Shown here: piece after piece, positions 579 through 26,168 of the stretch
How the letters are laid out: each line of letters opens with the position of its first letter
Position numbering within the stretch: position 1 is the first letter of the stretch
IMG/VR virus record: IMGVR_UViG_3300036833_000173
Span: 1-31,857 of that record
Direction: 5' to 3' (one strand)
Length of the DNA: 31,857 bases
Source of the DNA: a virus
Taxonomy: Duplodnaviria; Caudoviricetes
Translations under genes and position numbers: made by a program
The notes under the pieces: model-generated
What the model saw: the letters and a program-made list of their open reading frames with translations, nothing else
What the model was told of the DNA's origin: nothing
Databases searched by the model: none

Positions 579-1454
579 GTGACGGACCATACGAACAACG
601 AACATAGCCCATCGATCCGGCGGTTGAGCCGCGATCTGGTCAATGCGGCCATGACCATGTCCGCCGAGGAGGCCAGGTATCTGGTCGATAACTATTACGT
701 CCTGCAGGAGGGCCGGAAGCGGGCCGACAACCAGGCCCGCAGCATGGGCAAGGAAGAGCCCCATGTTCTGATCAGCTGGCTGGCCGAGCAGTCCGATACC
801 TTGGAAGGCCAGATCAAGCGGGCGCTAGACCGCTACACCGATACCCTAGCGCCGGGGCGGTGGATGAAATCCCTCTATGGGGTTGGTCCGGTGATCTCGG
901 CCGGGCTGTGCGCGCATATCGACATCGAGCGGGCGCCGAGCGTCGGCCATATCTATTCCTTCGCCGGCATTGCCGGATCGGGCCAGAAGCCCTGGAAGAA
1001 GGGCGAGATCAGGCCGTTCAACGCCGAGCTGCGGACCTTGTGCTGGAAGATCGGCCAGAGCTTCATGAAGTTTAGCGGCCAGGAGGAATGCCTCTATGGC
1101 GGTCTGTATCGGGAGCGCAAGATCTTCGAGATCGCCAACAACGAGAGTGGTGCACTGGCCGATCAGGCCAAGGCGATCCTGGAGGCCAAGAACTTCCGCA
1201 AGACCACCGACGCCTACAAGGCCTATTCCGCCGGCAAGCTACCGCCTGCGCATGTCGATGCCAGGGCGCGGCGTTTTGCGGTCAAGCTGTTTCTGGCGCA
1301 TCTGCACACGGTGATGTACTTCGACCACTACGGGGTATTGCCGGCGCATCCCTATCCGATCTCCCATCTCGGCCATGTGCATCATCTGCCGGTGCCCAAT
1401 GCGAATGTGGTCGCTGGCTTGGAGGAGGCCTTGCGCAAGCATGGCATGATGTAA
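579..1454 (+). CDS. tasA: TasA-like Nop-domain RNA-binding protein (IS110 C-terminal/Nop fold, no RuvC or HNH), 291 aa
   Basis: N-terminal coiled-coil (YYVLQEGRKRADNQ), IS110/Nop-like GVGPVISAGL and SVGHIYSFAGI, then FNAELRTLCWKIGQSF, HVDARARRFAVKLFLAHL and PYPISHLGH. There is no N-terminal DEDD/RuvC domain. Its stop codon overlaps the first unit of a dual-repeat array. Start placed at GTG 579 using the SD. Confidence 0.85.
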   Translation: MTDHTNNEHSPSIRRLSRDLVNAAMTMSAEEARYLVDNYYVLQEGRKRADNQARSMGKEEPHVLISWLAEQSDTLEGQIKRALDRYTDTLAPGRWMKSLYGVGPVISAGLCAHIDIERAPSVGHIYSFAGIAGSGQKPWKKGEIRPFNAELRTLCWKIGQSFMKFSGQEECLYGGLYRERKIFEIANNESGALADQAKAILEAKNFRKTTDAYKAYSAGKLPPAHVDARARRFAVKLFLAHLHTVMYFDHYGVLPAHPYPISHLGHVHHLPVPNANVVAGLEEALRKHGMM

Positions 1455-2937
1455 GCCATTAAGTCCGAGACAGCCCAATGAAGAAGAGCGAGCCATGTCC
1501 ATCGAGAAAACCCAGGCACAGTGAGCGAGCCACTCCACGGGAGACGATCCACTCCATTGAAGCGAGCCATCATGCATGAGAAGCCCCACACCATAGGAGC
1601 GAGCCATTCATAAGGAGACGACCCATTGACCAGGAGCGAGCCAGATGCAGTGAGAAACTCCATCTGTATCGAGCGAGCCACCGAGCAGGAGAAACCCCAG
1701 GTCCCTTGAGCTAGAGTGAGCCAACCACCCGGAGAAATACCAACAAGGGAAAGCGAGCCAGCATTCGTGTGAAACCCCATGGATCGCGAGCGGGCCATGA
1801 ACAGGTGAGATAGCCCAAATGTCCGGAGCGAGCCACGGTCGCTGAGATGCCCCAAAAAAGATGAGCGAGCCAAGTAACTGGATGATCCAACACCGGTGAG
1901 CAAGCCAGTATTCATGTGAAACCCCATAGAGCGCGAGCGAGCCAATCTCCGCGAGAAGACCAGCACCATAGAGCGAGCCACTAACGGCGCGAAAGCCCAT
2001 TCCCACTGAGCGAGCCATCAGCTGCGCGATAACCCTAACCCACTGAGCGAGCCAATGCTGTCGAGACAACCCAACAAGCCGGAGTGAGCCACCGATAGCG
2101 AGATGACCCAAGGAGCGTGAGCGAGCCAAGAAAGTCGCGACAACCCAAGCCTATTAAGCGAGCCATTCATCGCGTGATAACCCCAGGCATTGAGAGCGAG
2201 CCATTATCAGTGTGAAATCCCAAGCACCATGAGCGAGCCAGTGCCTAAGAGAAATACCATCTGCATCGAGCGAGCCAAGTGAACAGAAACGATCACGTCG
2301 CGAGAGCGAGCCATGAGCACAGAGATAGCCAACGCTAAAGAGCGAGCCAAGGATTATGAGAATTCCCACACTCATGGAGCGAGCCAACAGTGCAGCGATA
2401 GCCCAAGTGCAAAGAGCGAGCCAAGGATTATGAGAAGACCCAGTAGATGGGAGCGAGCCACAAATTCGGTGAAACACCAGCTTGTCGGAGCGAGCCAAGA
2501 CGCTTCGAGATAATCCAAGGCGTGCGAGCGGGCCACAAATCCGGAGAAGTACCAGCTTGTTGGAGCGAGCCACTCGTCACGCGAAGCCCCATGAACATCG
2601 AGCGAGCCCAGAGCGGTGAGACGGCCCATTAAACTAGAGCGAGCCACCGAGAGGGAGATCGCCCATCAAAAGAGAGCGAGCCAAAAAGGGTGAGACGAAC
2701 CAGATCTATGGAGCGAGCCATTCATCTTGAGATAGCCCAAGCTGGAAGAGCGAGCCATACTGACCGAGAAAACCCACACGAGGAGAGCGAGCCATTCGCT
2801 TAGTGACAGACCATGTGACTGGAGCGAGCCAAGTTGAATGCGACATCCCAAAACAGATGAGCGAGCCAGCGAGCAGGAAAAAGCCCAAAGACAACGAGCG
2901 AGCCATCAAAGAAGAGAAAGCCCATGCCTGAGGAGCA
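1454..2937 (+). repeat. TIGR-like tandem interspaced guide-RNA array, 40 units of ~37 nt, each with two 8-nt variable spacers
   Basis: Parsed by hand as AGCCA + spacer A (8) + loop repeat G(A/T/C)GAnnnNCCA (11) + spacer B (8) + GAGCG. Unit 1: agcca ttaagtcc gagacagccca atgaagaa gagcg. Unit 40 starts at 2901. 32 units are exactly 37 nt; the others are 35-43 nt. Confidence 0.92.
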
Positions 2938-24067: not shown

Positions 24068-24751
24068 TTAGGGCAGATCCCGCCATGGGAAGACGCCCGG
24101 CATGGTCATGGCAGGGTCCTCCCGCATCAGCGGAATGTAATCGCCGAGTGCGCGCGCCTTCTCGGTCTGCTCGTCGAGATCGTCGCAGAACTTGTCCAGC
24201 AGATCGTCCATGAGCTTGATGTAAGCCTTGTCCCTTTGCGTGTAATCGTATCGCGAAGGCATCCTCGGATGATAGGCAAAGAAATGCACGGCCTCCCAGC
24301 TACCGACCAGCAGCTGGCCCTGGACTTGGGGCCGGTAATCATTGCCGGGGCCGTCGAGTAGATAGCCCATCTGCGTCCATGGCGCGGGGCACTTGATCTC
24401 CACCGCCTCGACCGATCCCTTGACCAGGCAGTCGGGCGAGCAGCCGATCCGGCCGTCGTCCGAAGTCACGAACGAGATGCGTTCCAGGATCAGTTCCTTC
24501 TTTTCCTGGAACTTGATGATGGCCTCGGCCTCCATCTGCTTGCCCCACTCCATCCATGGCGTGTTGGTATTGTCCTCCATGGTTTCGTTCAGCAACCGCT
24601 CGGCCACGAGCTTGTACAGGTAGGGTCGCGCCTGCGCCGACGGCTTGCCGGTTGGGGTGATGATTTTGTGAAACTGCGAGGCGGTGGGGATACCGCGCCG
24701 CAGCTTCCACCACGCCTCTGTGCCCTGATCGACGACGTGAAGCTTACTCAT
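24068..24751 (-). CDS. YqaJ / lambda-exonuclease family recombination nuclease
   Basis: QGTEAWWKLRRGIPTAS, MEWG..ME, GCSPD, VEIKCP and QVQGQL motifs. Confidence 0.92.
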   Translation of the reverse strand: MSKLHVVDQGTEAWWKLRRGIPTASQFHKIITPTGKPSAQARPYLYKLVAERLLNETMEDNTNTPWMEWGKQMEAEAIIKFQEKKELILERISFVTSDDGRIGCSPDCLVKGSVEAVEIKCPAPWTQMGYLLDGPGNDYRPQVQGQLLVGSWEAVHFFAYHPRMPSRYDYTQRDKAYIKLMDDLLDKFCDDLDEQTEKARALGDYIPLMREDPAMTMPGVFPWRDLP

Positions 24752-24861
24752 GATATTTGGTTCATCTCGTCTTCAATGGTTCGCTTCTTGTGCATGGGGA
24801 TTTCTCGCCGTCACTGGCTCGCTCGTGCGGCTTGGTCTATCTCCAGTAACGTGGCTCGTTC
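24745..24861 (-). repeat. Satellite TIGR-like mini-array, 3 units
   Basis: Reverse complement reads gaacg | agcca cgttactg gagatagacca agccgcac gagcg | agcca gtgacggc gagaaatcccca tgcacaag aagcg | aacca ttgaagac gagatgaacca aatatcat gagta. Confidence 0.88.
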
Positions 24862-24874
24862 AGTAAATGCCCCG

Positions 24875-25066
24875 TTATTGACACATCCAACCAACGCAAC
24901 CGCATTCCTGATGGCAAATCGTCCGCCCCACACTATCGGTGTAACAAACCGTCCGGCACGATACTTGATGGACGTTAGGGCGCGGCGTGTAGTTCTGCCT
25001 AGCCAGCGGCAGAGCCTGCGCAGTGGTTGACAGCAACAGGCACACGACAGTTAACAAGTACTTCAT
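24875..25066 (-). CDS. Small secreted Cys-rich peptide (63 aa)
   Basis: Signal peptide MKYLLTVVCLLLSTTAQA; mature part has six Cys; purine-rich SD AGGGGTG. Confidence 0.65.
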   Translation of the reverse strand: MKYLLTVVCLLLSTTAQALPLARQNYTPRPNVHQVSCRTVCYTDSVGRTICHQECGCVGWMCQ

Positions 25067-25154
25067 TTCTTCACCCCTTCTTTTGTTCACGATTCGTACT
25101 GATATTCCATAATCTGGCGCCTTAATGTTTTTTCCAGATTTTCCCCCCAAATTT

Positions 25155-25244
25155 TGGCTCGCTTACACGTCTTGGTCTGTCTAGGCGGACGTGTGCGCAT
25201 TCTGGCTCACTCAGTGGGGGTGGGACTTCTCCGGTCGCATGGCT
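25155..25244 (-). repeat. Satellite TIGR-like mini-array, 2 units plus a terminal AGCCA
   Basis: Reverse complement reads agcca tgcgaccg gagaagtccca cccccact gagtg | agcca gaatgcgc [acacgtccgcct] agacagacca agacgtgt aagcg | agcca. Confidence 0.82.
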
Positions 25245-25899
25245 AGAACGGAATATCGTCATTCATATCCTCGTTCTTGAGGTTCTCGGTCCTGACCTCA
25301 CGGATGCCCTCGCGCTCGTCCCAGCCGACGATCTCGAAATGCGGCCGGGGGACATCGCCGAACTTGCGGGTCGGCATCATGACCTTGCCGAGCTTGATGA
25401 TGGGCTGGCCGCAGCCGGCTTGCTTCGCCGCCTTGCGGGCATAGGCCGAACAGAGATCGGCCACCGCCCGCTTACCGCCAAAGGACGAGGCCACTAAGAT
25501 GTTTACGTCGCCGGTCGTGAGGTCCTCCAGCGGCAATAAATACTGGAATACCCAGGGATCGGACGGCCTGCCATCCAGGCCGATCGGCCAATGCAGCTCC
25601 TCATGATCCGGCAGCTCGTCGCGCTCGGGGGCGCGCTCGCCCTTGTTGACACGGTAGACCTTGCGCTCGGCAACGGTACCGTTGAGGAACTTGACCCAGG
25701 TCTTGGTCCAGCCCACGGCATGGGCGATGAACCGCGAACCCAGGGGCACTTCCTCGCCCTCGCGGTAATAGACGCCCTTCTTGAATTTCAGCATCTTGTC
25801 GAACCCCGCGTCTGCGCTCGCCGCATCCAGGATCAGCTGGGCCTCATTCCATTGCGTGGAGGGGATGTTGTGGGATTTTGCTTCCGATAGTTTGTTCAT
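25243..25899 (-). CDS. Single-stranded DNA-binding-like protein
   Basis: Acidic C-terminal DMNDDIPF tail; located in the recombination module next to YqaJ; ATGA overlap with the upstream gene. Confidence 0.75.
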   Translation of the reverse strand: MNKLSEAKSHNIPSTQWNEAQLILDAASADAGFDKMLKFKKGVYYREGEEVPLGSRFIAHAVGWTKTWVKFLNGTVAERKVYRVNKGERAPERDELPDHEELHWPIGLDGRPSDPWVFQYLLPLEDLTTGDVNILVASSFGGKRAVADLCSAYARKAAKQAGCGQPIIKLGKVMMPTRKFGDVPRPHFEIVGWDEREGIREVRTENLKNEDMNDDIPF

Positions 25900-26105: not shown

Positions 26106-26168
26106 TCCCCGGTTGCATGTATATGAATATATATTGACCAACACTTGTCAAGAGGATAAGTCACACAG
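26106..26168. promoter_or_regulatory. Divergent promoter/operator with TTGAC-N8-GTCAA inverted repeat (26134-26151)
   Basis: AT-rich gap between divergent genes; perfect TTGACA on the - strand and TTGACC on the + strand. Confidence 0.6.

Follow-up and report, generated by a model that had tools for sequence, protein, structure and literature searches.

A phage TIGR array unit carrying a near match to its own predicted target, and the source geometry of TIGR spacer pairs

A tasA gene and two TIGR arrays in a tailed phage

We analysed a 31,857-base stretch of DNA (hereafter the window) that makes up one entire contig, in which family searches identified the terminase, major head, primase-helicase and exonuclease genes of a tailed phage (Table 1). 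The best terminase matches in a host look-up reached 34%, and no host was assigned from these. The stretch was present in one soil metagenome run (X1), and no RNA dataset was listed as containing it.

The tasA product matched the NCBIfam family TIGR_Tas (NF052498) with 181 bits (cut-off 100), as well as PDB entry 9MTY (E 2e-12) and TasH (E 8e-9). As Pfam, PHROGs and NCBIfam searches detected no nuclease family (N-terminal RuvC or HNH) in this Tas protein, it is classed as a predicted TasA. Its single Y-x6-H at residues 259-266 is, by spacing only, a putative C-terminal Tyr/His processing dyad. Together, the Tas-family Nop protein lacking a recognizable RuvC or HNH domain, the adjoining edge/loop array and the Y/H dyad indicate a dual-repeat TIGR-TasA locus, which upholds the assignment made in a preliminary description from the sequence alone.

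Within the main array, 31 of the 39 edge-to-edge distances are 37 nt, the canonical unit comprising a 5-nt edge, an 8-nt spacer A, an 11-nt loop, an 8-nt spacer B and a 5-nt edge. The base directly after spacer A is G in 34/34 canonical 37-nt units; the spacers are therefore 8 nt long, as previously described, and 9-nt spacers are ruled out for the window's arrays, the ninth base being this invariant G.

Judged by the available portions of PMC12045711 and of the preprint 10.64898/2026.09.09.750476, the window resembles known dual-repeat TIGR-TasA systems in its solo Nop Tas gene beside an edge/loop array, its box C (CCA) and a target read as spacer A followed by the reverse complement of spacer B, rc(B). 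It differs in its 37-nt units with an 11-nt loop and in its second array 23 kb away. The 8-nt spacers are shared with SpTIGR-TasH of Salicola phage CGphi29 (PDB 9W03/9W04), for which the available text of PMC13421893 describes a Y/H dyad (Y289/H296, the same C-terminal Y-x6-H spacing as Y259/H266 here) and that of the preprint 10.64898/2026.08.11.744272 gives 8-bp heteroduplexes. Unlike SpTasH, the window's TasA has no predicted HNH domain, and the window is known from sequence only.

Several further features were observed in the main array and elsewhere in the window. The other over-long unit (43 nt, 1676-1718, + strand) owes its length to an edge repeat that is duplicated in part; it has no continuation into the reverse complement of spacer A, rc(A). 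One spacer A is common to two units with different spacer B, and two other units are near-duplicates (2345/2419, 2456/2531, + strand); if halves are re-paired in this way, junction signals would be diluted. In run X1, the contig covering 1942-2255 has a depth of 2.6 and is flanked by contigs of depth 8-8.4, so the main array may vary within the population. An imperfect palindrome at 26134-26151 overlies a -35-like hexamer that precedes the leftward genes; the palindrome matches the guide at 1602 at 13/16 with a gap of 2, which is chance level. Self-targets of 38 window guides elsewhere in the genome reached at best 14/16, also the chance level.

The orphan array lies 23 kb from the main array, between replication and recombination genes, and is interrupted by about 290 bp (~25154 to 24862). 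This segment, with its 63-aa open reading frame (five cysteines, no family match), looks like cargo within a TIGR array. The 218-aa protein encoded upstream has a predicted fold with a pLDDT of 83; among PDB entries a phiC31 integrase-RDF fusion chain comes first (E 0.016), none reaching E 0.001, and its viral matches are unnamed save for one SSB at rank 44. It is possibly, on weak grounds, an ssDNA-binding protein. No relatives of the orphan array were found in viral contigs through this protein.

Table 1 Features of the window discussed in the text
Feature	Position	Strand	Description
tasA	579..1454	+	Solo Nop domain, 291 aa, Y259-x6-H266 near C-terminus
Main dual-repeat TIGR array	1454..2937	+	40 units, from tasA stop codon; repeats same as orphan array
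YqaJ/lambda-type exonuclease gene	24068..24751	-	Downstream of orphan array; Pfam PF09588, E 1.5e-18
Orphan TIGR array	24745..25244	-	5 units, from stop codon of upstream gene into exonuclease start codon
63-aa ORF in array interruption	24875..25066	-	Hydrophobic signal-peptide-like N-terminus, Cys-rich end
Aberrant TIGR unit, 48 nt	25160..25207	-	Second unit of orphan array, between two edge repeats
Spacer B, 8 nt	25165..25172	-	After loop repeat
Loop repeat of aberrant unit	25173..25183	-	PWM 7.4
Insert, 11 nt	25184..25194	-	After spacer A
Spacer A, 8 nt	25195..25202	-	Directly after box C of edge repeat
Gene for 218-aa beta-rich phage protein	25243..25899	-	Upstream of orphan array

The over-long unit of the orphan array

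The second unit of the orphan array measures 48 nt rather than 37 (25207-25160, - strand), and its 11 extra bases separate the loop from spacer A, so that it has neither the fixed unit length nor a loop directly after spacer A. Insert bases 25194-25188 are perfectly reverse-complementary to positions 8 to 2 of spacer B, while base 25187, opposite spacer B position 1, is a mismatch. A recount thus reproduces the 7/8 match to rc(B), directly after spacer A with zero gap, on which the preliminary description was built. No origin was identified for the last insert bases beyond this match, and the loop repeat that follows starts with T (25183) instead of the otherwise invariant G. When 38 parsed units and two parses of the aberrant unit were compared with the window, this site was the best A+rc(B) match (15/16, the next best being 14/16). 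A duplicated loop repeat was rejected as the source of the insert (PWM -30.9 versus 9.5-17.2 for real loops), nor was the insert found elsewhere in the phage genome, where the best match was 9/11.

The unit is supported by read data, a check that had been called for. A Logan contig of run X1 spans 24627-25600 with 0 differences, a depth of 6.9 and no joint or variant. This contig comes from a different assembler, and its identity makes an assembly error less likely; as X1 may itself be the source sample, the contig does not represent an independent isolate. Since the depth is close to the ~8 seen at the main array, the aberrant unit belongs to the majority form rather than to a transient intermediate.

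We then estimated how often such a match would arise by chance. The probability of at least 7/8 at one place is 3.8e-4 by formula and 3.6e-4 among natural spacers (3,146 of 8,631,844 pairs), and composition-keeping shuffles reached the register match in 316 of 400,000 cases (7.9e-4). Over four offsets, the value rises to 1.5e-3. The figure of about 4^-7 given previously therefore understated chance 6- to 25-fold. A 7-bp inverted repeat anywhere in the unit occurred in 22 of 2,000 shuffles.

It had also been suggested that the unit would reveal the target geometry. That geometry is already on record: in the available parts of PMC12045711, spacer A pairs with one target strand and spacer B with the other, gaps of 1-2 bp are tolerated, and the Table S3 oligonucleotides present the target as A directly followed by rc(B). 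One of these, the target of TaTasR tigRNA1, has the same zero-gap A+rc(B) arrangement as the unit described here. What sets the window apart from the dual-repeat TIGR-TasA systems in the consulted parts of PMC12045711 and 10.64898/2026.09.09.750476 is that one of its units holds its own target, a situation that the split guide is proposed to avoid.

At the RNA level, spacer B is predicted to pair with the insert in a hairpin of -11.4 kcal/mol (z -1.96), which 9 of 200 shuffles matched; the fold adds 2 pairs across a bulge to the 7-bp stem. Hairpins within guide units are known from the stem-loop and loop-hairpin tigRNAs in the portions of PMC12045711 and 10.64898/2026.09.09.750476 at hand. There, however, the stems flank the spacer pair or sit in the loop and recur in every unit, whereas the aberrant stem uses spacer B, occurs once and has neighbours that fold only weakly, and thus is not that of a stem-loop tigRNA.

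The hairpin and the DNA site could have a selected function: the site might be a TasA target encoded in the operon itself so as to throttle it, or the hairpin might deliberately switch off the guide. The preprint of Xu 2026 (10.64898/2026.09.09.750476) reports that TasA represses transcription, the DNA site matches at 15/16 with its mismatch at the tolerated edge, and the hairpin has the stability given above. Nevertheless, the only guide for the site is the 48-nt RNA itself, in which spacer B is predicted to be paired and the distance from A to the loop is 11 nt too long. No second example was found, and guides aimed at their own repeat junctions were not enriched (at least 7/8 in 1 and 1 of 2,417 pairs versus 1 and 2 in controls). 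We regard selected function as the least likely of the explanations considered here; all the others predict a dead guide that folds into a hairpin. A consensus scan found no terminator or promoter at the unit.

Origin of the insert and a survey of over-long units

Our leading, still tentative, explanation is an over-run during spacer writing in which part of the source DNA was kept. Each spacer would be taken from one strand of a source duplex, from the outer end towards the centre. If the A strand were not stopped or cut at the centre, it would run on through the B-giving half and about four flanking bases, and this failure would build A, rc(B), flank, loop and B, as observed. The mismatch at spacer B position 1 might reflect a later mutation or an imperfect source, and the resulting RNA, folding spacer B onto the insert, would be a dead guide, which an orphan array as disturbed as this one could tolerate. 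In support of an over-run, the register is exact at both spacer boundaries (chance 4-8e-4) and equals the target geometry in the consulted sections of PMC12045711. A position-1 mismatch is moreover tolerated by SpTasH, where it was tested in spacer A according to the accessible text of PMC13421893. Against it, the over-run requires one mismatch and a changed loop G, and it is a single case picked from a very large scan.

We looked for similar units in other arrays, as had been proposed. A total of 800 loci were fetched by TasA homology and repeat patterns, including over-long-unit patterns, and 19 non-array loci were added; three of the scans provided the best 120 of ~260 matches from metagenomes, 120 of ~130 from genomes and 146 of ~190 from one viral scan. 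Arrays were present in at least 448 loci, partly redundant (272, 90 and 86), with at least 2,671 unique canonical and at least 105 unique over-long units (40-69 nt) among the matches listed. At offsets of -1 to +3, none of these 105 units reached 7/8 on either side, whether spacer A was followed by rc(B) or spacer B by rc(A); the anticipated recurrence did not materialize, and three units had 6/8, which is about chance. A rough filter retained about 21 of the 105 as possibly informative, some of them still judged repeat-derived on inspection. In units whose loop is intact and one of whose spacers is longer, clean extensions of at least 3 nt read into the reverse complement of the partner in 0 of 13 cases and 2-nt extensions in 1 of 8. 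The survey covered loci with two canonical neighbours and so passed over L247 and L222 (both 6/8) and L214 (7/8), the last match being a simple GC repeat in a locus with no array units. The footprint is thus not a recurrent class in the surveyed families, the test having low power where such events make up less than ~1 in 20 foreign inserts.

Nor did a source emerge. In viral contigs, 19 sites matched the first 16 nt, and at none of them did the match extend into the flank; all 19 carry the window's own last base, and several lie by eye in one conserved coding motif. A sequence with the same flank outside arrays was absent from both the phage genome and these 19 matches. When 646 spacer pairs were separately searched for targets, the 711 kb of fetched loci gave 34 matches, spread evenly over gaps of -2 to +4, as expected by chance.

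A rival explanation is chance, under which the insert would be an ordinary insertion/deletion scar, in a decaying orphan array, that happens to resemble rc(B). In one such parse, the 11 nt are what a deletion between two units left behind, namely a box-C remnant and a second 8-nt spacer. Over-long units are common, mostly arising by slippage or by half-unit or edge duplications, and none of the 105 others matches; the array is broken 5 nt after the unit, and many arrays were scanned. Chance must nevertheless produce an event of 4e-4 to 1.5e-3 per unit, a match that begins and ends at spacer boundaries, and an insert that is neither loop-like nor a copy of other genome sequence. We consider it somewhat unlikely. 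The over-run in turn stays short of an even chance: its register gives a likelihood ratio of ~1,000, which is offset by a low prior (0 of ~21 informative units) and by how large the scan was.

A local template switch, in which the nascent strand folded back or switched at replication and copied spacer B in reverse, would involve no foreign DNA. The donor lies only 15-20 nt away, the 7-bp stem gains its 2 pairs across the bulge, and inverted repeats of 7-9 bp occur in other over-long units (L019, L114, L070). A copy from the same molecule would, however, be expected to match at 8/8 and then to run on through the loop repeat in reverse complement, neither of which is seen, and four to five bases are left unexplained. 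Inverted repeats of at least 7 bp were found in 3 of 65 long units, not clearly above chance. Because the match ends at 7 without the loop reverse complement, the template switch fits worst in detail, and we judge it improbable.

Alternatively, a normal unit may have recombined later with its genuine target by way of the 8 bp that spacer A shares with it, gaining 11-12 nt of target DNA, possibly with the help of the phage exonuclease encoded next door. The insert would then be target sequence and no trace of acquisition. The mismatch at spacer B position 1 would be explained by a target that is imperfect or has escaped, and the missing loop G by a junction; the YqaJ gene adjoins the orphan array. 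An identity of 8 bp is short for recombination, though, YqaJ homologues were found in only 1 of the 800 fetched loci, most of which are short, and the source search was negative. Later capture thus appears very unlikely.

Other over-long units showed structures of their own. L138 and L191 have 64-nt dual-repeat units with one common hairpin-bearing loop, L019 has a 41-nt unit with a 9-bp inverted repeat, and in the 49-nt unit of L114 a 7-bp inverted repeat starts right after spacer A but makes no in-register use of spacer B. Units of 47-49 nt in L479, L490, L522 and L537 derive from a doubled edge repeat, and three of these four loci encode a homologue of the window's 218-aa protein.

Source geometry of ordinary spacer pairs

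The preliminary description also held that dual spacers might be written from a single source. Natural spacer pairs do show signs of a contiguous source. In 56 of the fetched loci (L001-L800) the ninth spacer base is variable, and the last (ninth) bases of A and B were Watson-Crick complementary in 187 of 432 non-redundant units (43%). Within-array permutation predicts 117±7, with a maximum of 138 in 2,000 permutations. The excess was present in three separately fetched sets (61/159 versus 37, 65/136 versus 41 and 61/137 versus 39), while positions 1-8 showed no complementarity excess (91-116). By locus, complementarity ranged up to 7/8 in L609, with 0/5 in L019. The native ninth bases of TaTasR tigRNA1 (C and G in the accessible Table S3 of PMC12045711) are likewise complementary.

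G-T pairs at the ninth position were depleted (23 versus 47 expected), which a shared DNA base pair fits better than RNA pairing does, although RNA-level selection may be the cause of the complementarity. On these sequence statistics, complementary ninth bases imply a putative central base pair shared by the two spacers, that is, a 1-bp overlap. A 2-bp overlap in 9-nt arrays was rejected (28 versus 28).

Where one spacer is one base longer than usual, the additional base extended it into the partner's reverse complement in 14 of 28 cases, compared with 7.7 under permutation (p 0.004), and in 30 of 88 compared with 22.0 (p 0.04). When 8-nt arrays were scored with a phage-DNA model (1,435 pairs), the zero-gap junction reached z 3.0-3.1, within the range of splits inside a spacer, which served as a contiguous control (z 1.7-3.5), while eight other joins (seven alternative geometries and one control) gave -2.2 to +1.7. 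The zero-gap score fell to 2.2-2.4 on stricter de-duplication and to 1.5-1.9 under a different model; two small new sets (112 and 152 pairs), whose positive controls were also weak, gave -0.3 and 0.6. The junction signal of 8-nt arrays is thus suggestive only, and its weakening on re-analysis counts against the over-run. For these arrays, overlaps of 1 or 2 bp were rejected (372 versus 365 and 79 versus 90), and gaps of 1-3 were unsupported (z at most 1.0 versus 2.0-3.4 for true gap-1 controls).

Together, these patterns suggest that the two spacers of a unit are likely to derive from one duplex and to meet at its centre with about one base of play. For the 8-nt family of the window, our best guess is a zero gap, which is the register of the aberrant unit. 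In this respect, ninth-base complementarity, one-base-longer spacers and the zero-gap score in other arrays support the over-run. We accordingly arrive at a combined model, possible though short of an even chance, in which both spacers would come from the two strands of one duplex with a loose centre, many 9-nt pairs would share a base pair (a 17-bp protospacer), and the aberrant unit would be an over-run that kept a natural TasA protospacer and its flank, as the first trace of acquisition. The acquisition footprint proposed earlier is plausible: it has the known target register and is the single most likely reading, at less than an even chance, yet it did not recur in the survey, and no source was found in the phage genome or among the viral matches. 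The observation is real and improbable for one unit, its geometry was already known, and the footprint reading draws on one non-recurring case.

The complementary ninth bases are a firmer result than the aberrant unit itself, and they make the source geometry of TIGR spacers directly testable. They run against PMC12045711 (Faure 2025), the available parts of which find no obvious covariation between A and B and call overlap unlikely, list a 1-bp-overlap substrate in fig. S7D, lane 8, and call array expansion an enigma. For 9-nt systems, a 1-bp overlap should therefore be allowed for when targets are searched and guides designed. Spacer gain and targets are named as open questions in the portions of PMC12045711, PMC13421893 and 10.64898/2026.09.09.750476 at hand, the last of which states that acquisition and natural targets are unknown. 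In the open literature, preprint supplements aside, we found no work on over-long TIGR units or spacer overlap. If the aberrant unit did arise by over-run, it would give access to 20 nt of a natural target, a length that can usefully be searched for, whereas 16-nt targets drown in chance matches, and would constrain the mechanism to one that takes both halves from one duplex.

Finally, A position 5 covaries with B position 2 in 8-nt arrays (1,435-1,469 pairs, chi-square z 7.4). Split halves correlate at 0.5-0.7, the signal comes mostly from the first set (27.6 versus 5.4 and 10.6), and the covariation is not a simple pairing pattern.
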